The notes below the pieces were generated by a model, which saw only the letters and a list, made by a program, of their open reading frames with translations, searched no databases and had not been told where the DNA came from. Both the position numbers and the translations under genes were made by a program. Positions 1,950 to 17,551 of a stretch of DNA of 19,670 nucleotides are shown here, piece after piece. How positions within the stretch are numbered: position 1 is the stretch's first letter; each line of letters begins with the position of its first letter. Source of the stretch: Pseudomonadota bacterium (GTDB lineage: Bacteria; Bdellovibrionota_B; Oligoflexia; Oligoflexales; RGVZ01). Location: NCBI GenBank assembly GCA_041178085.1, contig JBEGVZ010000013.1, forward strand, positions 1-19,670, given 5' to 3'.

Positions 1950-3554
1950 TCAGTGGCGGAAGTGCCTGCGACCCGTCAACGCCATCGCAACACCAAGGCG
2001 GTTGCAGGCATCAACCACTTCCTGGTCACGGACACTGCCACCTGGCTGCACGATAAATCTGATTCCTGCTTCCGCAGCAGCGGTGACGGTGTCGGCAAAG
2101 GGGAAAAAGGCGTCCGAAGCGAGCACCAGATCGGCCTCGCTGATGGCAAGACGGTCCAGGTTACCCTGAGCGCGGGGCAGGGCAAGTCGCACCAAACTGT
2201 CGATCCGGTTGGGTTGTCCCATGCCGGCGCCAACCATTTCGAATCCGTTTGCAGTCTTCGCTGCCAGCACAATTGCGTTGCTCTTAAGGTGTTTGGCCAG
2301 GATGACAGAGAAACTGGCAAGCCGTTTCTTCTCTGGCGGAAAGGCGGCCTGCGTTGCATTGAACCATTCGAGGTCAAGACCATTGTCCTCTTGCTGCAGA
2401 AGCTGGCCGCCTGATATCGAGCGCACCTGCCACTCAACCTCGTCTTGCAGGAGCGGAAGTTCAAGAACACGGACATTTTTTTTGCCGGCGAGAATCTTCA
2501 ACGCTGCTTGATCATATCCGGGAGCAAGGACCACTTCGACAAAACGCTCTGCAAGGAATTCCGCCTCCGCACCTGTTACGAGGGACGTGAAGGCAAGAAC
2601 GCCACCGAAAGCACTGACCGGGTCCTGGGCCCAGGCCGATTCAAGGGCTGCCGTGAGTTCGCTTGAGACGGATGCACCACAAGGATTCCCGTGTTTGATG
2701 ATTGCAACGCCCGGGCAAACCTGGGAATTCCCGCTATCGCTGGCAAATCGGTGCAGGTCACTGGCAAGGCGCCACGCGGAATCAGCGTCAAGCAAGTTGT
2801 TCCAGGACAGTTCCTTGCCTTGGATCACACGAGCACCGGCAACACCCACCTGGCCGTTGCGCAGGAGAAACGCAGCTTGGTGGGGATTTTCTCCATATCG
2901 AAGCTTTGTTCTTCCTTGATGGTCCCCCTCCTTCGTAAAGCGAGCTGAAAACTCTGCCGCAATCGCCGAATCATATGCCGCCGTAGAGGCAAACGCCCTT
3001 GCCGCCATCCTACGTCGGAAATGGTGAGACACAGCACCTTCATTGGCCTCGAGTTCAGCAAGAACGGGGCGATAGTCAGTTGGATCCACGCAGACAAGCA
3101 CCGAATCAAAATTCTTTGCCGCAGCACGGATCATGCAGGGCCCACCGATGTCGATGTTCTCGACCAGCTCGTCGTCGGCAGATCCAGCAGCGACATGCTT
3201 CTCGAACGGATAAAGATTGCAAACAACCATATCGATGCCAGGCATGCCCAGCCGGGCAGCATCGGCGACATGAGAAGGATTGTCGCGACGATAAAGCAGC
3301 CCGCCATAAATCGCTGGAGATAGTGTTTTCAGACGGCCTCCGAAACACTCAGGAAAACGCGTCCACTCCTCGACCATGACGACCGGAACGCCAGCCTGCT
3401 TCAGGGTACGGGCGGTTCCACCCGTGGAGATGATCTCGACCCCAAAGTCCGCCAGCTTCTGAGCCAGTTCCACCACGCCCACCTTGTCAGATACGCTGAC
3501 CAGTGCGCGCTTGATTTTCACGAAATCCACCCCATGGACGCCCGTCAATTCCAT
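1950..3554 (-). CDS. purH: Bifunctional AICAR transformylase / IMP cyclohydrolase
   Basis: Motifs RALVSVSDK, STGGT, GGRLKTL, ENIDIGGP, LRYGENPHQ, KHGNPCG, ASDAFFPF, QPGGSVRD and the terminal RHFRH. The start overlaps the purQ stop (TGATG). Confidence 0.98.
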   Translation of the reverse strand: MELTGVHGVDFVKIKRALVSVSDKVGVVELAQKLADFGVEIISTGGTARTLKQAGVPVVMVEEWTRFPECFGGRLKTLSPAIYGGLLYRRDNPSHVADAARLGMPGIDMVVCNLYPFEKHVAAGSADDELVENIDIGGPCMIRAAAKNFDSVLVCVDPTDYRPVLAELEANEGAVSHHFRRRMAARAFASTAAYDSAIAAEFSARFTKEGDHQGRTKLRYGENPHQAAFLLRNGQVGVAGARVIQGKELSWNNLLDADSAWRLASDLHRFASDSGNSQVCPGVAIIKHGNPCGASVSSELTAALESAWAQDPVSAFGGVLAFTSLVTGAEAEFLAERFVEVVLAPGYDQAALKILAGKKNVRVLELPLLQDEVEWQVRSISGGQLLQQEDNGLDLEWFNATQAAFPPEKKRLASFSVILAKHLKSNAIVLAAKTANGFEMVGAGMGQPNRIDSLVRLALPRAQGNLDRLAISEADLVLASDAFFPFADTVTAAAEAGIRFIVQPGGSVRDQEVVDACNRLGVAMALTGRRHFRH

Positions 3555-4309
3555 CAGTGAGTCTCCTTCACATACTTGTAAGCATTTTCAAATACCCGAA
3601 GGCCGCGAGCACCACCGATGCGTTTTTGCGGATGCAAAACATCGTGCAATGCGGCCTCCGGATGAGGCATCAGACCGAAAACCAGGCCTGTCGGATCACA
3701 CAGCCCGGCGATCCTGCCGGACGATCCGTTGATGTCTTCAGAATATCGAAGCGCCACACATCCGGGTGGGATCTCTCCTTCGATCATCACCCGTCCTTCA
3801 CCGTGACGGACCGGAAAATCACACCCCTCCAGGCCCCGCGTCCAGATGCAGTCCGATTCTGGAAATTCGACGGCGACCCAGCGATCAACAAAAACGCCCT
3901 GCGAGTTATGCGCAAGCGCCACCCTTCTTCCAGAGGCAGGATCGTTGAAGAGTCCCATCTTGGCCAGGGTTTGAAAGCCGTTACAGATCCCAATGACGGG
4001 TTTTCCGTCCGCAACAAATTGACGGATCTGCTCACCCAGAAGGACCGAGAGCTTGGTGGCCAGGATCTGGCCGCTGCCAAGTTCATCCCCGAAAGAGAAA
4101 CCGCCCGGCAAGGCCAATGCTTGAAACTCACCGAGAGCCGCGGGTTCCGCAGCAAGGCGGTTCAGATGACAGGCCGAAGCAGCAAATCCTGCAGCAGCGA
4201 AGGCTGCCACAGTTTCACGCTCGCAGTTGATTCCGTCACCGCACAGCACAAGCGCCCTTGGTGTGCCGGCCTGATAAGTTGCATTTTTCAAGGTCAGCAC
4301 CTCCACCAT
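3554..4309 (-). CDS. purQ: FGAM synthase glutaminase subunit
   Basis: Motifs GINCERET, PGGFSFGD, catalytic GICNGFQ, RHGEG and GLMPHPE (Cys-His-Glu triad). 251 aa. Confidence 0.96.
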   Translation of the reverse strand: MVEVLTLKNATYQAGTPRALVLCGDGINCERETVAAFAAAGFAASACHLNRLAAEPAALGEFQALALPGGFSFGDELGSGQILATKLSVLLGEQIRQFVADGKPVIGICNGFQTLAKMGLFNDPASGRRVALAHNSQGVFVDRWVAVEFPESDCIWTRGLEGCDFPVRHGEGRVMIEGEIPPGCVALRYSEDINGSSGRIAGLCDPTGLVFGLMPHPEAALHDVLHPQKRIGGARGLRVFENAYKYVKETH

Positions 4310-7300
4310 TTTGCAATGTCCATGACTGGAACATTGAAGATCTCGCGCCCATCACCCGTGAGGATGACCTCCGGTGAATTCTCATGGGTTTGACCGATCT
4401 TCCTGAATGGAACACCGTCCATGATCCGCTCAAAGGCAGCAACTTCCCCGGCGTCGACTGACACGACAAAACGCCCCGGACCCTCATGGAACCACCAGCT
4501 GTGATCCCTTGGTCCTTCCACCCGGCATCCGATCCTGCCGCCGATGGCGGACTCACAGATGGCTGACGCAAGGCCGCCATCGCTGACATCATGGCAGGAG
4601 AGAAGAAGTCCCCCCATCATTGCCCGGTGCACTTTCCGGTAGATCGCGATCTGCAGGGGCAAATCCATCCGGGGCCAAACCGCACAATCGCGCAGCACCG
4701 GGAATGCGCCAGCGTATTCAGTGCCTTCCATGGGCCAGCCATGGTCCGCACCAACCAGATAAATCAAGCTATTTGGCGATTTGAAATCCGAGCCAGCAAG
4801 GCGCCGGACATCAGGCACCTTGCCAACAGCTGTGACCAGAACCGTCGGCGGAACGCTGATTTTGACTCGCTGACCGGCTTTTGTCGTGCCAGAGAAATCA
4901 TTCTTCATGCTGTCTTTGCCACTGACAAATGGCATACCCCAGGCGATGGATGTCTCCGCCAAGGCGCGGGCAGAACGCACGAGCTGCCCCAGCTTGTGGG
5001 CTGCGTCAGGGTTTGATGATCCTGGCAATGGGTCGGGCCAGCAAAAGTTGTCGACCAGGCACATCATGTCAGGATCAGCGCCGGATGCGACCGCGTTGCG
5101 GACCGCCTCATCAAGGGAGAACTGCGCGGAAAGCCAGGTGTCAACGTGGGCGATCTTTGGATTGATGCCTGATGCAACCGCGACTCCCGACCAGGGATCC
5201 GATGCTCCGTGCGGGCGCAGCCAGATCACACCGCCATCTGCTGGCCCATCTGCTGCGACTCCTGTGAACGGCTTGCCAACCGTCGCAGCTTGAACTTCGT
5301 GGTCAAAGCGCCGGACCAGCGATTCTTTTGAACGGACATTCGGACGACCAAGTACGGTTTTTAGCGCTTCGACCATATCGGGTGCTTCGCCCGATGGAAC
5401 TTTTGCGGATCCGTGAGCAGGCTTTCTCTCCACCCAATTGGGTTTCGGCTGCGGGCCTTGCCAGACCGCCTCCAAGCGCATGGGTTTGAGTTCCTTGTGC
5501 AGGAAATGAATTGGCAAGGAGGCGACCGGCTTGCCGTTCCAGCGAATACGGAAGGCGCCACTGCCATCGAAAGTGCCGATGTTCGTGACCTCAACGCCGT
5601 GAACACGAGCAAGGTCCGCCAGGGCCTTCCATTTCTCTTTCGGCACGGCAAGGGTCATCCGCTCCTGGCTCTCACTGACAACGATCTCCCAAGGATCAAG
5701 GCCCTGGTATTTCAGTGGCACCAGCGCGGCATCGATTGTCGCCCCCCCGGTGAACTGACTCATTTCCCCGACACTGGAACTTAGTCCGCCGGCACCATTA
5801 TCGGTGATACCTGAATAAAGGCCTGCGTCGCGCGCTTCGATGACAAAATCAAGCAGACGCTTCTGCGTCAGGGGATCACCAATTTGCACGGCTGAGCACG
5901 GAGATGCTTCGTTGAGTTCAAGGGAGCTGAAGGTTGCACCGTGGATGCCATCCTTGCCGACGCGACCGCCAGCCATCACCACAAGATCACCGCATGCAAG
6001 ATATTTCCGTGCGCCATCCCGCCCATCAGGAAGTCTTGCGGGGGATACTCCGATGGTCCCGCAATAGACGAGGGGCTTGCCGCAGTACTGATCATCGAAC
6101 ACAAAGGCCCCATTGACTACCGGAATGCCGCTCTTGTTACCGCCGTCTTGAATGCCTCGATGCACCCCCTCCATCACATGCGATGGATGCTTGAGGCCAA
6201 CTGGAAGCAGATCTTCAACTTCCGCCGGTGTCCAATCGGGCAAACCAAAACAAAGGACGTCCGTGTTCGCCACAGGACGGGCTCCCATGCCGGTTCCAAG
6301 AATGTCCCGGTTGACCCCAAGAATCCCGGTCAGGGAACCTCCGTAAGGATCAAGGGCGGATGGACTGTTGTGAGTTTCTACTTTGATGGAAACATCAAGA
6401 TTCTCATCAAAGCGCATCATGCCAGCGTTGTCAGAAAAAGTACTCGACAGCCATTTGATTCCTCGACGCGCCTCGATTTCCCGGGTGGCCCGGACTATTT
6501 CTGATTTGAACAGGCCGTTGATCCTGCTCGCGCCAAGTTGCGTATGTCCAGAAGCCGCCGCATCAAATTGTTCGCGATAATCGATTTCAGCGGCAAAGAT
6601 CTTATGTTTGCAGTGTTCACTCCAAGACTGGGCGATGATCTCCATTTCGACATCAGTGGGACCTTCGGGAAGCCCGGATTCGTGGCGGGCTACCTGGATA
6701 TCCGGCCGCCGGTAATGTTGGATCACAAGCAGCAATTCATCCCGCGAGAGGGCCCAATGACAGTCGCTGGAAATCTTCACCCACTCATCGATATCCAGGT
6801 TGACCGGAAAACTTTTAACATTGCCGGAGGTATCGTCCGCCGGGGCATGCGCTGCTGGCCCGAATGCCGGCAAGTCATCACGAAAGAACACACCCTGGAC
6901 GAGGGGATTGTACAAACCACCAGCTGCCAGAAGAGTCCGCAAATCCTCTTTCATCTTTGATGCCTCGACATTGACCTTCGCGTTGGCGCTGAGCCAGCCA
7001 AAGACGATTTCTCCCGAGGAGACCTGTGGCTTCTGGCCCCAATCCCGGGCGATGGCGATGGATTCAGCTGCGGCATTTCCACAGTTGTCGGTGACACCGT
7101 GCAACCAGCGAATTTCAAGGACGAAATCCGGCTCCTTCTTGATCGGGGAAACCAAAGTTTCAAGCACCGGATCGTGCAACAACCGGGCAATATTCCCGGT
7201 GAATTCTGCCGACGATTCGGACACTGCTGGATGCGTCACCCAGTATCCGCGCGCAACTTCTACCTTTTCCAGCCATGTCGAAAGCAAGGACTGGATTTTT

Positions 7301-7371
7301 TCTGCCCGCGCGCAGAGGGTACCGCGACCGGGAATGTCGTGAACTTCAATGATCGCCGTGTTGGTGCTCAT
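4294..7371 (-). CDS. purL: FGAM synthase synthetase subunit (1025 aa) with N-terminal PurS-like segments
   Basis: Motifs QSWSEHCKHK, DNAG, KVETHNSPS, GKDGIHGATFSS, DNGAGG, SESQERM, SGKDS and HDVSDGG. No glutaminase domain (purQ is separate). About 200 aa of N-terminal extension. Confidence 0.96.
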   Translation of the reverse strand: MSTNTAIIEVHDIPGRGTLCARAEKIQSLLSTWLEKVEVARGYWVTHPAVSESSAEFTGNIARLLHDPVLETLVSPIKKEPDFVLEIRWLHGVTDNCGNAAAESIAIARDWGQKPQVSSGEIVFGWLSANAKVNVEASKMKEDLRTLLAAGGLYNPLVQGVFFRDDLPAFGPAAHAPADDTSGNVKSFPVNLDIDEWVKISSDCHWALSRDELLLVIQHYRRPDIQVARHESGLPEGPTDVEMEIIAQSWSEHCKHKIFAAEIDYREQFDAAASGHTQLGASRINGLFKSEIVRATREIEARRGIKWLSSTFSDNAGMMRFDENLDVSIKVETHNSPSALDPYGGSLTGILGVNRDILGTGMGARPVANTDVLCFGLPDWTPAEVEDLLPVGLKHPSHVMEGVHRGIQDGGNKSGIPVVNGAFVFDDQYCGKPLVYCGTIGVSPARLPDGRDGARKYLACGDLVVMAGGRVGKDGIHGATFSSLELNEASPCSAVQIGDPLTQKRLLDFVIEARDAGLYSGITDNGAGGLSSSVGEMSQFTGGATIDAALVPLKYQGLDPWEIVVSESQERMTLAVPKEKWKALADLARVHGVEVTNIGTFDGSGAFRIRWNGKPVASLPIHFLHKELKPMRLEAVWQGPQPKPNWVERKPAHGSAKVPSGEAPDMVEALKTVLGRPNVRSKESLVRRFDHEVQAATVGKPFTGVAADGPADGGVIWLRPHGASDPWSGVAVASGINPKIAHVDTWLSAQFSLDEAVRNAVASGADPDMMCLVDNFCWPDPLPGSSNPDAAHKLGQLVRSARALAETSIAWGMPFVSGKDSMKNDFSGTTKAGQRVKISVPPTVLVTAVGKVPDVRRLAGSDFKSPNSLIYLVGADHGWPMEGTEYAGAFPVLRDCAVWPRMDLPLQIAIYRKVHRAMMGGLLLSCHDVSDGGLASAICESAIGGRIGCRVEGPRDHSWWFHEGPGRFVVSVDAGEVAAFERIMDGVPFRKIGQTHENSPEVILTGDGREIFNVPVMDIAKWWRC

Positions 7372-8020
7372 AAAGCTCCTTGGTGATTTGAAAGTCAGTC
7401 AGTTTCGCCAGGGCTTGTCCGAACAACCTGTGTTCAATCTGGCGTCCGCGCGCCGCAAAGGCTGCGAAATCATCATCGGGAAGGCGTGGAAACGATTCCT
7501 GGACGACAACCGGGCCAGAATCTACCCCCTCATCCACCAGATGAACGGTGATCCCGGATCGTTCCGCACCGTCGTTGAACGCCCTGCGCAGGGCGTCCTT
7601 TCCTGGATACTCAGGTAAAAGTGAAGGGTGGATATTGACCACCCGGTAATAGCCGCCTGGCGCATGAGCAAAGCGAGAAAGGAACTCCCCGGATAAGATG
7701 CGCATGTAACCAGCCAGCAAAAGCCATTCGCCACCCAGGTCTTCGACTGCCTGGGCGACAGCATTTTCATGGGCTCGCTTGCGGGCCATGAAGCCATCCG
7801 GAAACATCTCCTTTTCCGGGAAGCAAATGCATATGCAAGGAATTCCAAGGCGCTCGGCGCGCTGGATCACACCTGCCTGTGGATTGTCTGTGAGTATTGC
7901 CCTCACTTCCACCCGGCCCGGGTTCGCTCTTGCCCACAGGACAATGGCTTCAGCGTTGCTGCCGTCCCCTGAAGCAAGGATCACGGCACGCATGGGCTTT
8001 GCCATCACCGGGACTTTCAT
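7346..8020 (-). CDS. purN: Phosphoribosylglycinamide formyltransferase
   Basis: Motifs ILASGDGSN, LAGYMRILS, VNIHPSLLP and GITVHLVDEGVDSGP. ATG 8020 forms an ATGA overlap with the purD stop; later Met starts are possible. Confidence 0.96.
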   Translation of the reverse strand: MKVPVMAKPMRAVILASGDGSNAEAIVLWARANPGRVEVRAILTDNPQAGVIQRAERLGIPCICICFPEKEMFPDGFMARKRAHENAVAQAVEDLGGEWLLLAGYMRILSGEFLSRFAHAPGGYYRVVNIHPSLLPEYPGKDALRRAFNDGAERSGITVHLVDEGVDSGPVVVQESFPRLPDDDFAAFAARGRQIEHRLFGQALAKLTDFQITKELYEHQHGDH

Positions 8021-9315
8021 CGTGCGATATCCCTCCGCCACTGGGCCCCGTCAAAGTTCACTGCGGCGAGACCTTCGTATGCACCTGCACTGGCATCGGC
8101 CAGTGAACGTGCCACTGATGTGACACCCAGCACGCGCCCACCTGCGGAGACCAGTCCCCCACCGCCCGATGGGTCCTCGGCAACGCCAGAATAAAAAACG
8201 ATATGGTTACCACCAGGATTGGACGATTCGATCCGGGCGCCGGACTCGATGGCCGCACCGTCAATTCCAGGATAGCCTCGAGCAGCCTTGACCACGTGCA
8301 CGGCGCTGGCCGGGCGCCATTTCAATCCACGCGCGAATTCCTGCCCCAATTTTCCGTCCATCGCGGCTGCGAGTAATTGCGCAAAATCCTCGTCCAGCAG
8401 GGGCAAAAGAACCTGCGTTTCCGGATCACCGAGCCGCACATTGAATTCGAGGACGTTGAAATCTGTCGCTGTCTGCATCAATCCGGCGAAAAGAAAACCC
8501 CTGAACGGGCAACCAGACTCGGCCATCGTCGCCAGGACCGGCGCAAAAATCCTTTCACAGATTCCATTGCGCGCACGTTCATCAAGCCAGGGAGCCGGTG
8601 AATAAGCACCCATGCCGCCGGTGTTGGGACCCTTGTCACCATCACAAAGACGTTTGTGGTCACATGCGGAACCAAACCAGACGAAGTCCTTGCCGTCACA
8701 AAGAATAAACGCAGAGACCTCGCGACCAGGAAGCAACTCCTCACACACCAGGCCATTCGATAGCAGGGTCCCCCCTGAAGACTTGTCCATGGACTTGAGG
8801 GTTTCTACCGCCATTAAGGCTTCTTCACGCGTCTGGCAGACAAAAACTCCTTTCCCTGCAGCAAGGCCATCTGCCTTGATCACCATTCCGCGCCGCCACG
8901 GCCATGCCCTCACAAAAGCAGGCAAGTCGCTGACCGATGGGACAATGCGATACTCAGGCCCGGGCGCTCCCGCCTTGTCGATCATGCGGCGGGCGAAGGA
9001 CTTCGATGCCTCAAGGCGGGCCGCGGACCGTGATGGCCCGAGCACCCTTATGCCTGCGCATTCGAGTTCATCTACGATGCCTTGCGCCAACGGTGCCTCA
9101 GGGCCGACGACCACGTGGTCACATCCATTCCGGCGACAGAAATCCACCGCCGAAAAATTGGGCGTGACACCCAGCGGCACGGTCTTTCCACCTGGGGTTG
9201 AGCTCATCCCCGGATTGCCAGGCGCAACAAAAACACGATGAACCAGGGGTGACTGCGCCAGTTTCCACGCAATCGCATGTTCTCGTCCGCCCGATCCAAG
9301 CACCAACCAATTCAT
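8017..9315 (-). CDS. purD: Phosphoribosylamine--glycine ligase
   Basis: Motifs MNWLVLGSGGREHA, VVGPEAPL, KADGLAAGKGV, GPNTGGMGAYSP, EFNVRLGDPE and GGRVL. ATG 9315 forms an ATGA overlap with the upstream stop. Confidence 0.97.
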   Translation of the reverse strand: MNWLVLGSGGREHAIAWKLAQSPLVHRVFVAPGNPGMSSTPGGKTVPLGVTPNFSAVDFCRRNGCDHVVVGPEAPLAQGIVDELECAGIRVLGPSRSAARLEASKSFARRMIDKAGAPGPEYRIVPSVSDLPAFVRAWPWRRGMVIKADGLAAGKGVFVCQTREEALMAVETLKSMDKSSGGTLLSNGLVCEELLPGREVSAFILCDGKDFVWFGSACDHKRLCDGDKGPNTGGMGAYSPAPWLDERARNGICERIFAPVLATMAESGCPFRGFLFAGLMQTATDFNVLEFNVRLGDPETQVLLPLLDEDFAQLLAAAMDGKLGQEFARGLKWRPASAVHVVKAARGYPGIDGAAIESGARIESSNPGGNHIVFYSGVAEDPSGGGGLVSAGGRVLGVTSVARSLADASAGAYEGLAAVNFDGAQWRRDIAR

Positions 9316-11021
9316 GCGAGGCCTGCCTCCCTGACGCGACCAACCAGTTGACTCAAATCCCACGCAGCGGGGAATGGCGTCCTCTCACCGAAGGCACGGG
9401 CCAGAGAGTTCGCGATTGACGGATAAATATTCGCCGCGATGTTTGATATCTCGGGGGTCAGAGGTTCCGGCTTTTCCCCGAGTTCATCAGCGCAAACCGC
9501 CCGCCAGTCACAGGAGCGTTCCGCGGCAATCTTTTTGGCGCGCGCCACGGCTGCATGCCAGCTCCCGCCCACGTAGTACTGACGCAGAATCTCCTTTGAT
9601 AGCTGCACACCGTCATGGGTGAGTCGAAGCTCATCCGGGCCAATCGAATCCACCAGGATGAACTGCCTGCCAACGGCGTCGTCAACAGGTGAAGCGAAGG
9701 CAAATTCCAGCTTTCCGTCTTGCAAATCCAAGCCGGCACTCCGGAACAGGTCACGAAGGGTTGTGGCGATCGACAAAGCCAGTTCCTCAAGCCGCGCAAA
9801 TTCGTCCCGGGTTGTCCCCGAAATGCGACGCGCCTCGGCCCGCGATAAATAGCGATCAGAATCCTCGAGCTTGGTCGAGAATTCGATGACGGGTTTGTTA
9901 AAACATGCTCCAAGCTCAGGAACCTCAAAAAGGCCGATATCTTTCATGTAGACCGGATCCGCCTTTAGCCGCCCGGGCAAGGAGCTACCAACAGGCACGC
10001 CAAATCGGAAGACCACTTCCAGCGGAACCAGGCAGTTAACGGGTGCATTTTCATAAGCGGAATAATCCCAGCCGCGCGGTGTCCGCCCTGGGCGTTTCAC
10101 ATCGACTTCATCGACTGCCAGAAAGCGACTGCCAACTGCGACCAGGCCCCTGCTGTGATGCCGGGTCCCGACATGCCGGAAGATAGTGTCCGCAATCGCG
10201 GCCAAAGCCTCACCCTTGCCCAGGATCAGGTCAGGCATGGGACCCCAGTCAAAAACGGAGTAGCGATCACTGTATTCAAAAAGAAGGGTGCCGGGGGTTG
10301 TGCCGCGAAAGACATTCTTGACTGAACCGCGATAGATCATTGCCGGCCCAGGACGGGTAGTCGTGATTCTTGCGGCAAAAACCGCTGCGCTGCGCAGATT
10401 TCCTGCGCCAAACCAAAGCCCGCCCGATTTCATTTTTTCTTGCAGAAGACTCGCCGCCTGCGGATCTGACTTCCCCTGGAAATCCAGCCATGGAACGAAA
10501 ATAGAAACTGGTGCGCTGCCGTTACCATTTTGTTTTGCAGGGGGATCCTTTTCATTGAGGGGAACGATCTGGATGTTCAATGCATCTGGTTCAGGCACTG
10601 GCCCGATCGAGAAGTTCACACCTGCAGCTGTCGCCACCTCGCGAAAGTGCCGCAGCTCGTCCTGCATTGACGGATCGGACTCCACCGCAACGCCAAGGCT
10701 CAAGTGGATCCGGCGAACGGGATATCCCATCGCCAGCCGCAAGCCACTAACGATCGGCAGGGATGATTCTGACCCGACTCCTGCGAAATAGGCGTCGCAC
10801 AAAGGGTGATCATCCCCCGAATGAGGCTGTCGGCTGCGCTGACCAGTCAACTCAGCCGAGTCAGGTAGTGCCGGAAGGTGACACAAATCCACATCCAATC
10901 CACATTCATGCAACAAGTCGATCAGCGGTTTGGCGGCGTTCCCATCTGGGGCGCTACTGGAATAAAATCCGATGCGGCACTTCTGCGCCAAACCCATGAA
11001 GCTGGATGTTTCCTGACTCAT
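9312..11021 (-). CDS. purC: SAICAR synthetase with a ~227-aa N-terminal degenerate PurE-like extension (569 aa)
   Basis: The C-terminal 342 aa carry PurC motifs YRGSVKNV, YSDRYSVFDWG, PLEVVFR, IEFSTK, DGKLEF, DSIGPDELR and LSKEILR. ATG 11021 forms an ATGA overlap with the purF stop, which supports translation of the whole extension. Confidence 0.9.
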   Translation of the reverse strand: MSQETSSFMGLAQKCRIGFYSSSAPDGNAAKPLIDLLHECGLDVDLCHLPALPDSAELTGQRSRQPHSGDDHPLCDAYFAGVGSESSLPIVSGLRLAMGYPVRRIHLSLGVAVESDPSMQDELRHFREVATAAGVNFSIGPVPEPDALNIQIVPLNEKDPPAKQNGNGSAPVSIFVPWLDFQGKSDPQAASLLQEKMKSGGLWFGAGNLRSAAVFAARITTTRPGPAMIYRGSVKNVFRGTTPGTLLFEYSDRYSVFDWGPMPDLILGKGEALAAIADTIFRHVGTRHHSRGLVAVGSRFLAVDEVDVKRPGRTPRGWDYSAYENAPVNCLVPLEVVFRFGVPVGSSLPGRLKADPVYMKDIGLFEVPELGACFNKPVIEFSTKLEDSDRYLSRAEARRISGTTRDEFARLEELALSIATTLRDLFRSAGLDLQDGKLEFAFASPVDDAVGRQFILVDSIGPDELRLTHDGVQLSKEILRQYYVGGSWHAAVARAKKIAAERSCDWRAVCADELGEKPEPLTPEISNIAANIYPSIANSLARAFGERTPFPAAWDLSQLVGRVREAGLA

Positions 11022-12460
11022 GAACGAGCAACCCCCTCGATGCTGACGCTTTGACAAGGAACAGGATAATTGCCGTCGAGGCATGCCGTGCAGAGGGATG
11101 GCAGGCCGATGGAGGCGCGTAACGAGTCGACGTCCAGGTAAAATATCCCATCAACACCGATCTCTCGGGCCACTTCGTCCTCGCTGCGTTCATGGGCCAC
11201 CAGGCCACGCGCATCAGGAAAATCGATCCCGTAAAAGCACGGATGACGAACGGGTGGGCACGTGCTGGCCAAAAACACCTGACGTGCGCCTGCGGAACGC
11301 ACCAGCGAGACAAGCCTGCGGGCCGTTGTGCCGCGAACCACGCTGTCATCGACCAGCAAAACGGACTTCCCAGCGATTTCCGACGCCACTGGCGCAAGTT
11401 TGATCCTCAACGCTTGTTCGCGATCTTGCTGGGTATTCAAGATGAAACTGCGGAATACATAGCGGTTCTTGATCAGCACATCGCGGTAGGGAATGCCCAG
11501 GCTTTCCGCCAGGGAGATCGCTGCCGTCCGGCTTGTGTCTGGCACCGGGACCACCATGTCGAATGGTCCTGCGGCGCGGCTTTTAACCAGCCTTGCCAGG
11601 GCGCGTCCCAGGTCAAGTCTGGCCCCGTATACACCCCGACCCTCAATGACCGATTCGGCGCTGGCGAAGTAGACCCATTCAAACATGCATGGCGCCTTCC
11701 GCTGAAGGGCTGTACCAGCGACCTTTCGTGAGTGAACTGCTCCGGATTCTTCGACAAAAACAATTTCGCCCGGTTCGATGTCACGAACCAGGCGATGTCC
11801 CATGATATTGAAGGCAGCTGTTTCAGAGGCGATCGAGACGCTGCCGTCCTCGTCACGCCGGCCAAGGACAAGGGGCCGGATCCCACTCGGGTCACGGAAA
11901 GCGTACATCCCCTGCCCCGCGATGATTCCGACCACGGCGTATCCGCCGCGCGCCGTGTCGAAAACAAAATCGACCGCACGGCAGAATGCCTCAAAATCAA
12001 AACGGCCCGGGAGAATTTCCCGGGCCGCTTTGGAAGAAAGTCCTTCCGCGAGGAGGCACTGAAGTACCTCCAGGTCATTTCCGGTCTGGAGGTACCGGTT
12101 CTGGGAAACGCGGATCCGCTCCGCGAGCTCGGTGTAATTTGACAGATTGCCGTTGTGGGCCATGCCAATGCCATAAGGCTGAGGCAGGATAGAGGGCTGG
12201 ATGTCCCGCTCCTCTGCGACGCCGACCGTGGAATACCGGGTGTGACCGATTGCCGCCATGCCACCAAGTCCACCCATTGCCGGCTGGTCAAAAGCCTGCG
12301 AGACAAGCCCAGCACCCCGGACCAGATGAAACTTCTTGTGGTTGAAATCGAAGGAAAGAATGCCCGCGGCGTCCTGTCCGCGATGCTGGAGGGCCAGGAG
12401 GCCCGCATACACATCCCGGGAAGCTGATTGGCTACCGATGACACCCACAACACCGCACAT
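11018..12460 (-). CDS. purF: Amidophosphoribosyltransferase, probably the 4Fe-4S-containing type
   Basis: N-terminal nucleophile MCGVVG; motifs LQHRGQD, GHTRYST, HNGN, RDPSGIRPL, PRPP-binding VDDSVVRGTT; Cys motifs PCMFEWVYF, PCFYGID and LCTACLDG. The start is fixed at 12460 by the Cys2 requirement. Confidence 0.98.
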   Translation of the reverse strand: MCGVVGVIGSQSASRDVYAGLLALQHRGQDAAGILSFDFNHKKFHLVRGAGLVSQAFDQPAMGGLGGMAAIGHTRYSTVGVAEERDIQPSILPQPYGIGMAHNGNLSNYTELAERIRVSQNRYLQTGNDLEVLQCLLAEGLSSKAAREILPGRFDFEAFCRAVDFVFDTARGGYAVVGIIAGQGMYAFRDPSGIRPLVLGRRDEDGSVSIASETAAFNIMGHRLVRDIEPGEIVFVEESGAVHSRKVAGTALQRKAPCMFEWVYFASAESVIEGRGVYGARLDLGRALARLVKSRAAGPFDMVVPVPDTSRTAAISLAESLGIPYRDVLIKNRYVFRSFILNTQQDREQALRIKLAPVASEIAGKSVLLVDDSVVRGTTARRLVSLVRSAGARQVFLASTCPPVRHPCFYGIDFPDARGLVAHERSEDEVAREIGVDGIFYLDVDSLRASIGLPSLCTACLDGNYPVPCQSVSIEGVARS

Positions 12461-12524
12461 GCGAGGGTCTCTCAATGTGGCAAATTCGCGGAAAGTGTAA
12501 TCGCAATTTAACAACGAAATCCAG

Positions 12525-12530
12525 TATAAT
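12525..12530 (+). promoter_or_regulatory. Candidate sigma70 -10 element (TATAAT) for the rightward operon
   Basis: Perfect TATAAT in the AT-rich divergent intergenic region, about 90 nt upstream of ATG 12621. The -35 is poor (TCGCAA at 12501-12506). Confidence 0.45.
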
Positions 12531-12544
12531 CCGATGCGAGGTAG

Positions 12545-12588
12545 AAAAATCCCTGGCCGCAAGGCCGGCCGCAGGGTTCGGGGTTTTT
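12545..12588 (+). promoter_or_regulatory. Structured leader or terminator-like hairpin upstream of the oxygenase gene
   Basis: GGCC-GCAA-GGCC tetraloop hairpin (12555-12566). CCCTG (12551-12555) can pair with CAGGG (12572-12576). AAAAATCCC (12545-12553) can pair with GGGGTTTTT (12580-12588). Confidence 0.4.
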
Positions 12589-12620
12589 GTCGCTCTCAAA
12601 CACCATCCAAGGATGCCACC

Positions 12621-13532
12621 ATGAGCACGATCCACACCGCCAAGGCAGGGCCGAAGACCAGCGAACTCCGCAAAAGGCTCGCCAACCTTGACCGCTGGGA
12701 CAAGATTGTCCGCCTTGACCTGTATCCGGTCCACGATCCTGGTTGTCCAGCAGCGCGGCAGCTCGTTGCACGCTGCCAGGAACAGATGCTAGGCGGCGCC
12801 TGCGAATTGCCAGATTTCCTGACCAAGGATGCTGTCGAAATCCTGCAACTCGAAAGCGCCATCATGGAACACAAGGCATTCTTCAAGCCTGTGGTGGGAA
12901 ATCCATATCTGACGCCTGAAGATCCGAAACTACCCGCCGACCACCCCAACCGCATGACGGAAACGACACGCGTTGGTGTACTGGCTTATGACGAATACCC
13001 GACCGACTCGTTACTGCGCCAGATCTACGAATGGGACCCGATGATGCATTTCATCGGCCAGGTCCTGAAGCTGCCGCAGATCCACCGCTATGCCGACCCG
13101 ATGGGCGGACTGAACCTTTCCGTGATGCAAGATGGTGATTACCTGCGTTGGCACTTTGACCAGACGGATTTCGTCTCTTCAATTTCGATCCAGACTTCGA
13201 CCGAGGGCGGTGAGTTTGAGTACGTGCCAATGATCCGCACGGAAAAAGACGAGAATTACGGCGAGGTCAGCCAGTTGCTCAAAGGAGACCGCAGTAAAGT
13301 CGCAACCATCACCAATCATCCGGGCACGCTGCTGTTGTTCAGGGGCCGCTGGTCCATCCACCGTGTTACACCGATCAAGGGTACGCGCAGCCGCCTGATG
13401 GGACTTTTTGGCTTTGATTCAAAGGCTGGCGTCAAGAGTTCCCCGCATCTTTATGACATTCGCTATGGCCGCAGCAAACCAATGAAAACACCCCCAAGTT
13501 TCGAGGACTACGAACATGCAGGCAAGAACTGA
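12621..13532 (+). CDS. Fe(II)/2-oxoglutarate-dependent oxygenase, BesD/HalD-like, hydroxylase-type triad (303 aa)
   Basis: HxD motif WHFD (13149-13160), EGGEFEY, distal His in GTLLLFRGRWSIHRVTP and a downstream 2OG-binding Arg (TRSRL). AAGGA RBS precedes ATG 12621. Confidence 0.82.
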   Translation: MSTIHTAKAGPKTSELRKRLANLDRWDKIVRLDLYPVHDPGCPAARQLVARCQEQMLGGACELPDFLTKDAVEILQLESAIMEHKAFFKPVVGNPYLTPEDPKLPADHPNRMTETTRVGVLAYDEYPTDSLLRQIYEWDPMMHFIGQVLKLPQIHRYADPMGGLNLSVMQDGDYLRWHFDQTDFVSSISIQTSTEGGEFEYVPMIRTEKDENYGEVSQLLKGDRSKVATITNHPGTLLLFRGRWSIHRVTPIKGTRSRLMGLFGFDSKAGVKSSPHLYDIRYGRSKPMKTPPSFEDYEHAGKN

Positions 13533-15015
13533 CGCGCTGCGCTGGATCAGCGCCAGCCCCAAGAAAGCCTGGATAAACGGAACGTGGGCGGACGTGAAGG
13601 GCGCGGGCTCTAGCTTTCCCGTCATCAACCCGGCGACGGGCGAAACGCTGTGCGAGCTCAACGAATCCGGTGCGGAGTTGGTTGACGCCGCAGCGCAAGC
13701 TGCGCGCTCTGCCTTCAATGATGGAACCTGGCCGGGGATGACGCGCGCCGAACGCGCCTCAGCACTGAACCGCATTGCAGCAGTGATCCGGAAGCACCAG
13801 AACGAACTCGCGGCCCTTGAAACCCTTTGCAATGGCAAGACTTTCAAAGAATCCCTCTACGACGACTTGCCCGAGTCTGCATCCGTATTCGAGTACTACG
13901 CTGGATGGATCGACAAGATTTACGGTGAGACTTGCCCGGTGGAACAAGGGTTCGTAAATTTCACGCTACGCGAACCCGTCGGTCCCTGCGCACTCATCGT
14001 ACCGTGGAATTTTCCGCTGCTGTTGGCCTGCTGGAAGATCGCGCCTGCCCTTGCCATGGGCAACACCGTGGTGGTCAAGCCGTCGCCGATGACATCGCTG
14101 ACCATGATCCGCCTGGCCGAAATCATCCATGCAGAAGGTATCCTGCCCCGCGGTGTGTTCAACGTTGTCACCGGCGGCCGTGAAACCGGTGAGGCACTCA
14201 CGCGGCACAAGTCGATCGCCAAGGTGTCCTTTACGGGCGGCACTGATACGGGACGTTCGATCCTGAAGGGCTCCGCGGAATCAAACCTGAAGGCCGTGAC
14301 ACTTGAGCTGGGAGGGAAATCTCCCAACATCATTTTTGAGGACGCAAAAAATCTTGAGGCCGTGATTGATCGCTCTTTCCAGGCAATGTTTTCCCACAAG
14401 GGCGAAAAGTGCTCGGAACCAACGCGCCTTCTGGTTCATCGCAGCCTGCATGACCGTGTTGTGAAGGCGCTCGTTGAAAAAGCAGAGAAAGTACGCTGTG
14501 GCGACCCCTTCGCAGACACGACAGAACAGGGACCGCAGTGTTTTGAAGATCACATGAAAAAAATCCTGTCCTACATCGAATCGGGACTCAAGGAAGGGGC
14601 GCGTTGCGTTGCCGGCGGCAAGCGGGACGATTCAGCAGAATGCAAGAAGGGCTTCTTCGTACGACCGACCATATTCACCAACGTCACGCCGGCCATGAAG
14701 ATCTTTCAGGAAGAAATCTTCGGACCAGTGCTTGCGGTCAGTGTCTTTGACACGGAGGAACAGGCGATCGAACTGGCCAATGCCACGCGCTACGGACTGG
14801 CTGCTGGCCTTTATACAGCGGACGCGGACCGTGCGATGCGTGTTGCACGCAAACTCGAAGCCGGCATGGTTTTCGTCAACCGTTACGGATGTTACGACTT
14901 TGCCAGCCCGTTTGGGGGCTACAAGGAAAGCGGTTGGGGCAAGGAAATGGCCATCCATTCGCTAGAGGCCTACACCCGTCGTAAATCCATTTGGTTCACT
15001 GTCGCCAAAAATTAA
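13516..15015 (+). CDS. Aldehyde dehydrogenase family protein (499 aa)
   Basis: Motifs INPATGE, PWNFPL, WKIAPALAMGN, FTGGTDTG, catalytic Glu in LELGGKSP, catalytic Cys in GEKC, EEIFGP and PFGGYKESG. GAGGA RBS; 17-nt overlap with the upstream gene. Confidence 0.96.
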   Translation: MQARTDALRWISASPKKAWINGTWADVKGAGSSFPVINPATGETLCELNESGAELVDAAAQAARSAFNDGTWPGMTRAERASALNRIAAVIRKHQNELAALETLCNGKTFKESLYDDLPESASVFEYYAGWIDKIYGETCPVEQGFVNFTLREPVGPCALIVPWNFPLLLACWKIAPALAMGNTVVVKPSPMTSLTMIRLAEIIHAEGILPRGVFNVVTGGRETGEALTRHKSIAKVSFTGGTDTGRSILKGSAESNLKAVTLELGGKSPNIIFEDAKNLEAVIDRSFQAMFSHKGEKCSEPTRLLVHRSLHDRVVKALVEKAEKVRCGDPFADTTEQGPQCFEDHMKKILSYIESGLKEGARCVAGGKRDDSAECKKGFFVRPTIFTNVTPAMKIFQEEIFGPVLAVSVFDTEEQAIELANATRYGLAAGLYTADADRAMRVARKLEAGMVFVNRYGCYDFASPFGGYKESGWGKEMAIHSLEAYTRRKSIWFTVAKN

Positions 15016-15029
15016 TTCAAGGCTCGCCA

Positions 15030-16322
15030 ATGTCTTTCCTGCCGAAAATAGAACGGATCCTGATCGCACGGGGACCAGGGTCTTGCTGGCAAGAAGACAT
15101 TTCCGCCATCAGATCCCGATGGATCGCTCCGGGCGACCGCTGGGTCACACCTGCGCAGGCACCAGGCTTCAAATTTGTCAGGCAACCCGCCCGCGTCATG
15201 TCGATCGGTCTGGACATGGGCAATGGTCAAATCGCATGGGGCGACTGTGTTGGCGTTTCGTTTGCCGGCAAGTCTGGACGTGACCGGGCCTTTACTGGCT
15301 CTGCATCCGACCAGCTGGGTGACGCCGGGTTCACAAAAAAACTTCTTTCCGTCCTGCACGATTGCGCAGGCATGCCGATGGATGCGGTCGAACAAAACAT
15401 CCAGGCGCAAATGCCTGATCAACCCTCAAGCGTCGCATTTGGGATCAGCCAAGCCCTCGTCAATGCAGTCGCGGCCCAATCAGGGAAGTCTGCATGTCAG
15501 GTTTTTGCCGAAATCCTGGGAAGCGCGCCTGATTGGTCGCAAAGACTGGGCCAAATTGAATTCCAGGGGTCTTGCGGTAGCAACTGGCACGACGCAGTCG
15601 AGCGGATGATCGTCCAAGGAATCAGGTACCTGCCACAAGGACAGTTTGAAGACCTCCCCCGTGAACTCGGGGCGGATGGAAGCAAGCTTTTCGCTTACAT
15701 CGACTGGTTGAAGTCACGCATGGCCACATTTGATGCGGCAAGGGGTCCGGCACTGCCCGCACCACAACCACGGGTGATCACTCTAGACTTTCACGGTGCC
15801 GCCGGAACTCTGTTTTCTAACGACCCTGCAAGACTTGCTGCCTTCATCCTTGAGCTTGAGGGTCGCTGCAAGCCCTTTGCCTTGCACATTGAAAGTCCGA
15901 TTGTCATGGACTCGTTTGAGGAGCAGGTTCCAGCCTTGGTCTCCCTGCGCAGGGAACTTCGTTTGCGGAATTCGAAAGTCAAAATCATCGCAGACGAATG
16001 GGCCAATACTTTGGGTCAGATGGAGGCCCTTGCCACGGCAGGCGGAGTGGATGGAATCCACATCAAGATGCCCGACACAGGTTCGCTGCTGGACTCCGGC
16101 CGGGCAGTCCAACTGTGCCACCGCCACAAACTCTTTGCGCTGCTTGGGGGAAGCTGCACGGAGACTGCGGTTTCAGCCACCCTGGCCGTTCACCTTGCAG
16201 CAGCAACCTGCCCTGACGCATTGCTGGTCAAACCAGGTATTTCTTTCGATGAAGGATTCAGCTTGGTGTCGCTCGAGATGTCAAAAATCAAGGCTCGTTT
16301 CGGAGCCGGTATCTCTGACTGA
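15030..16322 (+). CDS. Methylaspartate ammonia-lyase-like enolase-superfamily enzyme, divergent (430 aa)
   Basis: MAL-like segments run along the whole length: GFKFVRQP, GQIAWGDC, SGRD, FGISQAL, LDFHG, LHIESP, IADEWANT, IKMPD, GGSCTET, LVKPG and DEG...EM. Confidence 0.85.
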   Translation: MSFLPKIERILIARGPGSCWQEDISAIRSRWIAPGDRWVTPAQAPGFKFVRQPARVMSIGLDMGNGQIAWGDCVGVSFAGKSGRDRAFTGSASDQLGDAGFTKKLLSVLHDCAGMPMDAVEQNIQAQMPDQPSSVAFGISQALVNAVAAQSGKSACQVFAEILGSAPDWSQRLGQIEFQGSCGSNWHDAVERMIVQGIRYLPQGQFEDLPRELGADGSKLFAYIDWLKSRMATFDAARGPALPAPQPRVITLDFHGAAGTLFSNDPARLAAFILELEGRCKPFALHIESPIVMDSFEEQVPALVSLRRELRLRNSKVKIIADEWANTLGQMEALATAGGVDGIHIKMPDTGSLLDSGRAVQLCHRHKLFALLGGSCTETAVSATLAVHLAAATCPDALLVKPGISFDEGFSLVSLEMSKIKARFGAGISD

Positions 16323-17341
16323 TCGAGCTCCAGCCATTCATGGATGTGCGGATAAACATCGTGTTCCACATGCATGCCCAGCACGATGTCTGAATGCCCG
16401 TAATCGCTCCGGTGACCGTGGGCTTTGCCAATGATGACCAGATCTTTCCAACCACCGGCTGCACGCCACGCAGCGTCCACGGCTGAAGCTGGAACCAGCA
16501 TGTCGTGACTTGCACGGATGAAACGCAAGGGCACCGGTGATTGTGCAAGCGCGGACGTGTAGTTGATTGAACCACACGCAGAGTAGATTCCGTCCCTGCC
16601 GGCCCACGACTTCACTTGCCTCAGCAAGTCTCTTGAAATGTCCGCGCCGATGTGGCGGATCAGCTGCTTGGCGAATCCGAGTTCGTAGTTCGATTTGAAT
16701 CCAAGCGACGGTTCATTGCGGGGAGTCAAAAGCGGAAACAAGAGTCCCAGCACAGCCAGCCATGCGCGATTGGGCAGCCGGTGCAATGGCAGTCGCGTAC
16801 ACAGCTCGAGCATCATTCGTAGACGCGGAGGCAAGCCGCTGATGCGACCAGGGCCTGCAATGGCGACGCCCTTGCGAATGCCGACGCCCCCGACTTGCCC
16901 GCGATGGTGTCCAGCCAAGGCGTAAAGGATCGTTGCGCCCATCGAATGCCCAACCCAGTCGACTTCATCGTGCCCGGTGAGTTGCCTCACGCCAGCCAAC
17001 AATGCCGGGACATCTTCCTGGACGTAGGAATCAAAGTTGTAGCGCCACGCGGCGGAACGATTTGCATCGGGAGTAAGATCGACCGAGCGACCAGCGCCAC
17101 GCAGTTCGACCACGCACACATCCCTCCCGCGGCTGGCAAGCCAGCGCGCCAGGCTGGTCCGGTAACCGGGGGCCAGATTGAAGCGATTCGCACCCAGCCC
17201 GTGACAAAGCACAATCGGGGGCTTCGCTGGTGCCCTCAACGGACCAGGTCGAAAACGATAGATAGGCAACACCCAGCCATCGCGTGTTGTCACGGTGGTT
17301 TCTTCGTCTGCCCCTGTGCTCCACGATCCGGGGTTTTCCAT
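16190..17341 (-). CDS. Alpha/beta-fold serine hydrolase (lipase/esterase, PhaC-like fold; ~383 aa)
   Basis: Motifs TRDGWVL, oxyanion LCHGLGAN, ELRGAG, nucleophile elbow WVGHSMG, acid in SHDMLVP and His in YGHSD. GAGGGAG precedes ATG 17341. The longer ORF start at 17530 runs through the intergenic region. Confidence 0.88.
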   Translation of the reverse strand: MENPGSWSTGADEETTVTTRDGWVLPIYRFRPGPLRAPAKPPIVLCHGLGANRFNLAPGYRTSLARWLASRGRDVCVVELRGAGRSVDLTPDANRSAAWRYNFDSYVQEDVPALLAGVRQLTGHDEVDWVGHSMGATILYALAGHHRGQVGGVGIRKGVAIAGPGRISGLPPRLRMMLELCTRLPLHRLPNRAWLAVLGLLFPLLTPRNEPSLGFKSNYELGFAKQLIRHIGADISRDLLRQVKSWAGRDGIYSACGSINYTSALAQSPVPLRFIRASHDMLVPASAVDAAWRAAGGWKDLVIIGKAHGHRSDYGHSDIVLGMHVEHDVYPHIHEWLELDQSEIPAPKRALIFDISSDTKLNPSSKEIPGLTSNASGQVAAAR

Positions 17342-17473
17342 GGCCCGATTCGTCTCCCTCAATCCCGGAACAAGCGGGAAAAATGTGATCCAGTGACCAA
17401 AAAGTCTACATGGACGGCGAAAATCGCGACGTCTTAACTTCCTGTAATGACCGGTAATAAATTGTTGCTCATC

Positions 17474-17489
17474 CGGCACGGATTCTGCA
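17474..17489 (+). promoter_or_regulatory. sigma54 (RpoN) -24/-12 promoter
   Basis: CGGCACGGATTCTGCA matches YGGCACG-N4-YTGCW with exact GG-N10-GC spacing, 62 nt upstream of ATG 17552. It is preceded by an AT-rich tract (about 17445-17465). Confidence 0.7.
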
Positions 17490-17551
17490 ACTCCAGGCAC
17501 ATCCAAATCGGAAACTGCACCGGGTTCCATCTTTCACGAAGGGTATTGGAC

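Follow-up and report, generated by a model that had tools for sequence, protein, structure and literature searches.

The cassette and its three enzymes

The window, a stretch of 19,670 bases that is the whole of contig C13 (JBEGVZ010000013.1) in the 3.0-Mb, 96%-complete genome of an Oligoflexales bacterium, carries three consecutive genes for an Fe(II)/2-oxoglutarate (Fe/2OG) oxygenase, an NAD(P)-dependent aldehyde dehydrogenase (ALDH) and a lyase of the methylaspartate ammonia-lyase (MAL) family in the enolase superfamily. Here we describe this cassette, its relatives in other genomes and the catabolic route that it may encode. The layout given in the original prediction was borne out by the listing of open reading frames (ORFs) and their translations: the three genes are co-directional, with a 17-nt overlap between the first two (13516-13532) and a 14-nt gap before the third (15016-15029). 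They are bordered upstream by the divergent purF on the minus strand, whose probable start lies at 12460 (N-terminus MCGVVG), and downstream by a convergent alpha/beta hydrolase gene that overlaps the 3' end of the MAL-like gene by 133 nt. A Shine-Dalgarno-like purine run stands at the start of each cassette gene (Table 1). Both the purF-oxygenase junction and the lyase/hydrolase overlap are bridged, free of indels, by contigs from the runs of two other studies; hence, the gene arrangement is not an assembly artefact.

Table 1. Positions in the window of the cassette genes and the features next to them
Feature	Position	Strand	Remarks
Fe(II)/2-oxoglutarate oxygenase	12621..13532	+	303 aa; ATG with AAGGA ahead
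ALDH, NAD(P)-dependent	13516..15015	+	499 aa; GAGGA 9-13 nt ahead of ATG
MAL-family lyase (enolase superfamily)	15030..16322	+	430 aa; AAGG ahead of ATG
Alpha/beta hydrolase, lipase-type N-terminal region	16190..17530	-	Convergent on the MAL-like gene
Divergent spacer between purF and the oxygenase gene	12461..12620		160 nt

The grouping recurs well beyond this genome. A search of 5.8 billion proteins returned 12 clusters at 51-75% identity, after which identity drops to 42% or less. Among species-representative genomes, 11 loci hold a MAL-like relative that is at least 37% identical, and all seven of those with at least 2.5 kb of upstream sequence (L001, L002, L004, L005, L006, L010 and L011) show the oxygenase, ALDH and lyase genes in identical order and on the same strand; checked in this way, the suggested linkage of the three genes held. 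The hosts are Pseudobacteriovorax-type, Oligoflexales and Bdellovibrio metagenome-assembled genomes (MAGs) and two Polynucleobacter MAGs, so that two phyla are represented (Bdellovibrionota and that of Polynucleobacter). The remaining loci are cut inside the ALDH gene (two) or start inside the lyase gene (two). In 131 genomes of the window's phylum, the oxygenase is present in 22, the MAL-like gene in 15 and both in 13, the two MAL-like-only exceptions being one gene at a contig edge and one 30%-identical MAL. Furthermore, the ALDH gene adjoins the oxygenase gene in all 11 further loci of the phylum. Given the conserved order and the co-occurrence in 13 of 15 genomes, the grouping of the three genes is not due to chance. 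Within the window's genus, the oxygenase is found in only three of six other genomes, and the cassette is thus an accessory trait. The proteins encoded upstream of the oxygenase in Polynucleobacter- and Bdellovibrio-type loci could not be assigned to a Pfam family and, compared by eye, do not resemble one another.

The oxygenase matches the Pfam family HalD (PF23169) with 43.6 bits against a cut-off of 26, and also 2OG-FeII_Oxy_3. When its sequence was searched against PDB chains, the best match was HalB (E=0.071), which is too weak, and a fold search was therefore needed. The AlphaFold2 model (pLDDT 95.2) has HalB, HalD, BesD, HalA and the hydroxylase 7JSD as its top Foldseek matches (template-modelling scores 0.6/0.71, probability 1.00, 12-16% identity), and in the ESM Atlas the protein falls in HalD/BesD clusters that are 98-100% PF23169. 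The triad H178/D180/H247 and R258 are invariant in 65 relatives, with the motif WHFDQTD. Across these 65 sequences the halogenase signature HxG/A is replaced by HxD; since an Asp is present in the triad, the enzyme is expected to be of the hydroxylase type and not a halogenase. By sequence and modelled fold, then, the protein is a HalD/BesD-fold Fe/2OG hydroxylase. Enzymes of this family are described in PMC10041140 as holding free Lys or Orn by the alpha-carboxylate and alpha-amine and attacking it at C4/C5. In a plasmid collection, oxygenase-like genes were found at 31-36% identity only, in Pantoea, Klebsiella, Caballeronia and Pseudomonas, and with other partners: an M24 'Xaa-Pro peptidase' on plasmids of Pseudomonas sp. 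MPC6 (L104) and Caballeronia (L106), and a DUF2817/M14-like protein together with an amino-acid solute-binding protein on pPag3 of Pantoea vagans (L105). These pairs may be related modules for other substrates.

The ALDH matches Pfam Aldedh (PF00171) with 567 bits and has all of the catalytic residues, namely the Cys, the general-base Glu (in ELGGKSP) and the Asn (in PWNFP). Its Cys loop is unusual: FSHKGEKCSEPTR is found in 31 of 33 oxygenase-linked ALDHs (ELGGKSP in 32 of 33), whereas the paralogues in the window's own genome carry the usual NQG..C.AGSR instead. Similarly, the enzyme is 66-77% identical to oxygenase-adjacent ALDHs elsewhere versus at most 46% to its own-genome paralogues. 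The best-scoring models are those for betaine-aldehyde dehydrogenase (BADH), both below their cut-offs (TIGR01804, 528.9 versus 668.6 bits; NF009725, 510.3 versus 593). Judged by these signatures, the ALDH is cassette-specific and forms a dedicated orthogroup.

The lyase contains MAAL_N (PF05034, 79 bits) and MAAL_C (PF07476, 217.7 bits) and aligns with Citrobacter MAL 1KKO over residues 6-420 (E=1.4e-57), while its score against the equivalog TIGR01502 (257.8 bits) lies below the cut-off of 286.15. In MAL numbering, D238/E273/D307, K331, C361 and L384 are retained, and the Mg2+ ligands D238, E273 and D307 and the base K331 are kept in all 30 aligned rows. The changes relative to MAL are Q73S, Q172S, H194Q, Q329H and T360S, with Trp at positions 66 and 177. 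The combination Q73S, Q172S and Q329H occurs in 23 of 24 tier-1/tier-2 MAL-like rows, whose genomic context is known except for nine database-only rows; the residues Q/Q/H/Q at 73/172/194/329 are retained in five of six true MALs from other clusters. The alignment thus describes a MAL catalytic core with a remodelled leaving-group pocket in which both amine-binding Gln residues are lost. As had been noted earlier, the window has no glutamate mutase gene; the own genome, at its 96% completeness, likewise gave no Met_asp_mut_E match. Partners of the mesaconate type are found only around the canonical MALs of other loci (L012-L021) and not around the cassette lyases.

Several other MAL-like genes were seen along the way. 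At L012-L021 (Burkholderia, Paraburkholderia, Pseudomonas, Bradyrhizobium and Glutamicibacter), genes for canonical MALs are clustered with those for an ALDH, a GMC oxidoreductase or class-I fumarase, a family-III coenzyme A (CoA)-transferase, an HpcH-type lyase and an amino-acid permease; the stretches read there contain no glutamate mutase gene. These clusters look like a pathway distinct from the cassette, in which methylaspartate arises from an amino alcohol or aldehyde and is degraded via mesaconate and citramalyl-CoA. In a Planctomycetaceae MAG (L017, 1395-3527), a PhyH-type Fe/2OG dioxygenase domain and a MAL domain that has the canonical amine pocket (Q73, Q172, H194) are encoded by a single 710-aa ORF, as a natural fusion of the two. 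Variants with a hydrophobic amine pocket were found as Q73V/Q172M in L032 (5712-6935), divergent from an oxygenase-ALDH-OpuAC set, and as Q73I/Q172S in L022 (7938-9245), beside a thiamine pyrophosphate enzyme, an ALDH and an MmgE/PrpD protein.

A second lyase family, transporters and esterases at oxygenase loci

When metagenomes were scanned with an alignment of the oxygenase, more than 400 relatives were detected; for the 80 best loci, the neighbours within 4 kb were recorded. A lyase of any kind is present in 47 of the 80, with the MAL family accounting for six; in 41 loci there is instead an unrelated, aspartase-like lyase of about 420 aa (PF00206). The other neighbours counted were a cassette-type ALDH (20 loci), an esterase or lipase (19), SBP_bac_5 (7), a BCCT or OpuAC transporter (4) and an M24 protein (4). 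Where at least 3 kb could be read on both sides (22 loci), a lyase is present in 15.

Aspartase is the closest relative of the PF00206 partner (NF008909, 414.8 bits, below the cut-off of 510; AspB 1J3U, 2.6e-78). Among 31 full-length sequences, S140, T187, S318, K324 and N326 are retained in every one, T141 in 29 and S319 in 30, which leaves the serines of the catalytic SS loop and the two carboxylate pockets intact. The changes fall elsewhere: N142 has become Ala and H188 Cys in 31/31, T101 is Ile, Val or Phe in 31/31, and M321 is Phe or Tyr in 30/31. N142 and H188 are the amine-contacting residues of aspartase, according to PMC11744663. Hence, both lyase families lack the hydrogen-bonding residues of the amine pocket, which points to L-aspartate bearing a bulky nitrogen that is unable to donate hydrogen bonds as the substrate. 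The sole chemistry common to the two families is the loss of the C2 nitrogen of aspartate to give fumarate.

In a quick tree of the 65 oxygenases, the window falls in an all-MAL clade of seven rows (support 99), which is nested in a larger, likewise supported group of 24 rows, some of them aspartase-linked; the lyase partner has thus been swapped at least twice. As far as the sequences tell, one oxygenase family has recruited two unrelated lyase families, that is, by non-homologous replacement.

The transporters found at these loci belong to two families as well. In the closest relatives (L001, L002, L011 and L024-L026), the oxygenase gene is immediately preceded by a BCCT gene. In L125, L128, L129 and L032, three of them from other genomes of the phylum and one from a metagenome, the oxygenase-ALDH pair is followed by an OpuAC-type betaine ABC transporter. 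Since these are two unrelated families of quaternary-ammonium importers, a betaine-type substrate is indicated. The own genome has a BCCT gene that overlaps a DddP-like M24 gene by 17 nt on contig C80 (16813-19696); the M24 protein scores 213 bits against DddP (cut-off 600) and shares 64-71% identity with its L029 counterpart, whose gene immediately precedes that of the oxygenase, and 49% with its L057 counterpart. M24-positive genomes are few (5 of 131, from five genera), and all of them are oxygenase-positive. Probably, then, the cassette is split in the own genome, with the BCCT-M24 pair as its detached first half and this BCCT as the importer. DddP eliminates dimethylsulfide from a beta-sulfonium carboxylate, and by analogy we speculate that the DddP-like M24 protein could represent an onium lyase of a third type.

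Hydrolases are a further recurrent neighbour. The convergent hydrolase of the window (Abhydrolase_1, 56.5 bits; Abhydro_lipase, 26.8 bits versus a cut-off of 27) occupies the same position in L001, L002, L024 and L025, and the N-terminus of the L001 orthologue looks, by eye, like a signal peptide. It is possibly an accessory esterase of the system, although this is uncertain and its position could be lineage synteny only. A polyhydroxybutyrate-depolymerase-type esterase is encoded directly upstream in 13 loci, one of these proteins having a lipobox by eye. Alpha/beta hydrolases occur in six of the 80 metagenome loci (four ABH-type and two of the window's type), the gene immediately upstream in L126 encodes a patatin-like phospholipase, and in L129 the cassette has a GDSL lipase gene as its neighbour.

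A predicted route to fumarate and its rivals

We propose that the cassette breaks down a betaine-type compound through an N-alkyl aspartate to fumarate, and we hold this to be about as likely as not, or slightly likelier; the N-alkylated aspartate is probably the trimethyl form. The compound degraded would be an imported quaternary-ammonium compound with a four-carbon amino-acid skeleton that ends as fumarate. It is known from Fe/2OG cleavage of the TauD/TfdA type that a heteroatom-bearing carbon is hydroxylated and the unstable product collapses to an aldehyde. Likewise, the hydroxylase of the cassette would attack the oxygen-bearing C4 of an N(alpha)-trimethylated 2-aminobutyrate unit, and the resulting hemiacetal or gem-diol would break down to the aldehyde 2-(trimethylammonio)-4-oxobutanoate, from which oxidation by the ALDH would give (S)-2-(trimethylammonio)succinate ('aspartate betaine'). 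Finally, Lys346 of the MAL-like lyase, the equivalent of K331, would take the C3 proton, the enolate would be held on Mg2+, and trimethylamine would be expelled by an E1cB elimination to give fumarate. The chain set out in the original prediction, from Fe/2OG hydroxylation to an aldehyde, on to a carboxylate and then to Mg-dependent beta-elimination of an amine or onium group, in the catabolism of a modified amino acid or quaternary amine, is supported by the betaine transporters and by the second, pocket-altered lyase.

Homoserine betaine is an abundant natural compound with the required skeleton, and is found ether-linked to glycerol in the betaine lipid diacylglyceryl-trimethylhomoserine (DGTS) of algae, mosses, fungi and phosphorus-starved bacteria. 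Tentatively, and as speculation, we name it as the leading substrate candidate, either free or as the glyceryl-homoserine betaine derived from DGTS. Hydroxylation of the ether carbon of the latter would free glycerol and the aldehyde, much as in TfdA/TauD-type reactions, and the esterase and lipase neighbours fit a DGTS head group since the acyl chains would be stripped by esterases. In its fullest and still doubtful form, this proposal would make the cassette the first catabolic route for the DGTS head group or free homoserine betaine, with exported esterases, BCCT/OpuAC import, ether cleavage by a BesD-fold enzyme, and a class of trimethylamine-forming lyases that has arisen independently in at least two unrelated folds (MAL and aspartase), with M24 perhaps as a third. 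Full-text literature searches, which did not cover subscription journals, found no characterised pathway with this trio, in agreement with the original prediction, and no paper on the catabolism of the DGTS head group. A search for DUF3419, which we take to be the BtaA-type family of DGTS synthesis, gave no match in the own genome; the control genomes gave none either, so this result carries little weight.

A number of points weigh against this proposal. The pockets were read from sequence alignment to solved relatives, we infer the enzyme steps, and the DGTS/homoserine-betaine assignment is speculative, drawn purely from chemical logic; the full-text searches found no paper under five spellings of 'aspartate betaine'. 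The window's operon has no transporter gene, and the single BCCT gene of the own genome, on C80, encodes a protein only 35-37% identical to the in-operon BCCTs. The proposal leaves the role of the M24 protein unexplained, and the esterase neighbours, which come from different families, might be there by coincidence or through lineage synteny. In 7 of the 22 metagenome loci flanked by 3 kb or more of sequence on each side, the oxygenase has no partner at all. An ALDH lies within 4 kb in just 20 of the 80 loci, and in the identity band of 49-54% an ALDH is present in 1 of 24 loci and a lyase in 21 of 24; as the ALDH is missing from most distant loci, the aldehyde step is not universal, though many of the contigs are short. 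Trimethylamine monooxygenase (Tmm) above the cut-off was found in none of the 22 oxygenase-positive genomes, the true Tmm genes of the phylum occurring in 3 of 131 genomes that all lack the oxygenase; thus, trimethylamine released by the cassette would not be used in that way. An FMO-like gene on contig C37 was considered as a trimethylamine monooxygenase and rejected (111 bits versus 675).

Other readings of the cassette account for parts of the same evidence. That the lyase is a genuine 3-methylaspartate ammonia-lyase of glutamate or methylaspartate metabolism, with two unrelated neighbours, is hardly credible: its MAAL domains, its match to 1KKO and the retained metal ligands and K331 would suit this role, but it falls short of the TIGR01502 cut-off, Q73, Q172, H194 and Q329 are all altered, and the own genome gave no match to the E subunit of glutamate mutase. 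Moreover, true MALs sit with a CoA-transferase, an HpcH lyase and a mesaconase-type fumarase, whereas the linkage of the cassette lyase to oxygenase and ALDH is conserved. It is also very improbable that the lyase works in the biosynthetic direction, adding an amine to fumarate to form an N-substituted aspartate (aminocarboxylate or opine-like) that the other two enzymes tailor. MAL/aspartase-type lyases are reversible and make N-substituted aspartates in vitro, according to PMC7586795. Nevertheless, the genes linked to the cassette encode uptake transporters, esterases and repressors (TetR, LysR) and no exporters or biosynthetic partners, the ALDH runs toward the acid, and patchiness within the genus (three of six other genomes) is typical of accessory catabolism. 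Another candidate has the oxygenase hydroxylating C4 of a 4-onium or 4-amino 2-aminobutyrate (S-methylmethionine, 2,4-diaminobutyrate or a canavanine-like compound), which would split off the side group and yield aspartate semialdehyde, from which the ALDH would make L-aspartate for an ordinary aspartate ammonia-lyase. The ALDH DoeC makes aspartate from its semialdehyde in ectoine catabolism, and the DddP-like M24 protein hints at sulfonium chemistry; HalD/BesD enzymes, as far as the source given above describes them, take amino acids with cationic side chains and attack C4/C5. This route is quite improbable all the same, as the residues that would bind a free amine through hydrogen bonds are uniformly lost (N142A/H188C in 31/31, Q73S with Q172S in 23/24), aspartate requires no dedicated lyase, and the MAL-like protein scores below the MAL cut-off.

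The remaining two readings start from the transporters. BCCT and OpuA/OpuC-type systems are known ectoine importers, and the oxygenase could hydroxylate the ring CH2 next to the nitrogen of ectoine or hydroxyectoine, upon which the ring would open to N-acetimidoyl-aspartate semialdehyde; the ALDH would then form N-acetimidoyl-L-aspartate and the lyase would release fumarate and acetamidine, comparable to argininosuccinate lyase and a guanidine. We regard this oxidative ectoine route as unlikely, although the stereochemistry would match L-aspartate, the enlarged and less polar amine pocket would fit an amidine too, and in 5 of 80 loci the gene immediately before that of the oxygenase encodes a PhyH-family dioxygenase (the family of ectoine hydroxylase). 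That neighbour matches no NCBIfam ectoine-hydroxylase model, however; the M24 proteins, a group that includes the ectoine hydrolase DoeA, match DoeA weakly (32-39 bits) and are far nearer to DddP (213-417 bits); and the esterase/lipase neighbours (19/80 loci), together with the patatin and GDSL genes, are left unexplained. In addition, HalD/BesD enzymes bind open-chain amino acids, according to PMC10041140. With carnitine as the import, C4 hydroxylation of L-carnitine, possibly derived from an acyl form, would give trimethylamine and malic semialdehyde, from which the ALDH would make malate and the lyase fumarate. The make-up of the cassette does parallel that of the Acinetobacter cnt operon, betaine/carnitine-type transporters are linked to it, and the esterases could be acylcarnitine hydrolases. 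Judging by its configuration, L-carnitine would give D-malate, however, and both lyase families keep the base for L-aspartate-type anti-elimination and the carboxylate residues, which would not suit the D-enantiomer; both also lack the polar or acid residues needed by a hydroxyl leaving group (H188C, H194Q). For these reasons, we consider a carnitine route improbable.

If the proposed route to an N-alkyl aspartate and fumarate is true, the cassette fills a gap in quaternary-ammonium turnover in soils and fresh waters, and would be a new O2-dependent source of trimethylamine or a related amine with direct entry into the tricarboxylic acid cycle. A natural N-alkyl-aspartate lyase would be added to both the MAL and aspartase families; engineers obtained such lyase activities by mutating positions that are naturally changed here. 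Should the substrate be the DGTS head group, this would be the first known degradation route for that part of an abundant phosphorus-free membrane lipid. The cassette is a clear case of non-homologous replacement inside one pathway. Public sources label the cassette lyases 'methylaspartate ammonia-lyase', a systematic misannotation that the cassette corrects. New elements of this description are the association of both lyase modules with a single oxygenase family, the link to OpuAC transporters, the signature motif of the ALDH, the co-occurrence of M24, the probable division of the cassette in the own genome and a concrete substrate candidate.

Surrounding sequence and relation to known systems

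The spacer between purF and the oxygenase gene presumably holds the cassette promoter. A promoter scan of 12300-16700 found no sigma-70 consensus, and the same region has 10 terminator-like hairpins versus 4.9 +/- 2.4 in shuffles, none of them informatively placed. A GC-rich hairpin with a T-run lies in the spacer on the minus strand (12551-12570), oriented as a terminator, with no minus-strand gene ending there. No Rfam family matched in the window, and the spacer, when aligned to the 3' ends of the L001 and L002 BCCT genes, revealed no BCCT remnant. The tail-to-tail overlap of the lyase and hydrolase genes is conserved, at 133 nt in the window (16190-16322), 103 nt in L001 (9227-9329) and 109 nt in L002 (9260-9368). 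On the minus strand, a complete purine operon, purF-purC-purD-purN-purL-purQ-purH-purM, occupies 933-12460. Its purC ORF (9312-11084) has a 245-aa N-terminal extension without a Pfam match, while the L001 counterpart is just 364 aa; PurL has 1025 aa, and an FGAR-AT linker is part of its N-terminal region of about 300 aa, even though PurQ is encoded by a separate gene.

Among known systems, the HalD/BesD halogenases and hydroxylases (6NIE, 7U6H-J and 7JSD) are the best structural matches of the oxygenase, which also shares Pfam HalD with them. In contrast to them, the window's enzyme is about 50 residues longer, is only 12-16% identical, has HxD in place of HxG, and stands in a catabolic context with a different predicted substrate. 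The pairing of TauD/TfdA cleavage with betaine-aldehyde dehydrogenase offers a parallel to the first two predicted steps, in that hydroxylation and collapse give an aldehyde and a trimethylammonio aldehyde is the substrate of a BADH-like ALDH. The cassette differs in its Fe/2OG subfamily and in the ALDH motif, KGEKCSEPTR and not NQGQxCxAGSR.

The carnitine oxygenase operon of Acinetobacter reportedly comprises CntAB, a malic semialdehyde dehydrogenase, a D-malate enzyme, a BCCT and a LysR regulator. Import by a BCCT, oxidative cleavage to an aldehyde, an ALDH and a C4 dicarboxylate delivered to central metabolism are points of likeness. However, the oxygenase of the cassette is an Fe/2OG and not a Rieske enzyme, the last enzyme is an aspartate-type lyase and not a dehydrogenase, and the nitrogen is predicted to leave last, not first.

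EDDS lyase and argininosuccinate lyase are, besides AspB and AspA, fumarate-forming C-N lyases of the aspartase/fumarase superfamily. The aspartase-like partner resembles these enzymes in its SS loop, in both carboxylate pockets and in its predicted product, fumarate; unlike AspB/AspA, it is only about 420 aa long, has no C-terminal domain and carries T101I, N142A, H188C and M321F/Y. The window's own lyase belongs to another superfamily. With MAL (EC 4.3.1.2; Citrobacter amalonaticus 1KKO/1KKR and Clostridium tetanomorphum 1KCZ) this lyase shares the two-domain enolase-superfamily fold, the Mg ligands and the S-specific base K331, as well as the predicted chemistry, in which an enolate forms beside a carboxylate and a beta nitrogen group is lost. 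Nevertheless, H194, the R-specific base of MAL, is Gln in the window's enzyme, and neither glutamate mutase nor mesaconate genes accompany it, the linked genes being those for the Fe/2OG hydroxylase and the ALDH. Its predicted leaving group is an alkylated amine, comparable to the engineered MAL variant Q73A, which takes alkylamines according to PMC7586795.

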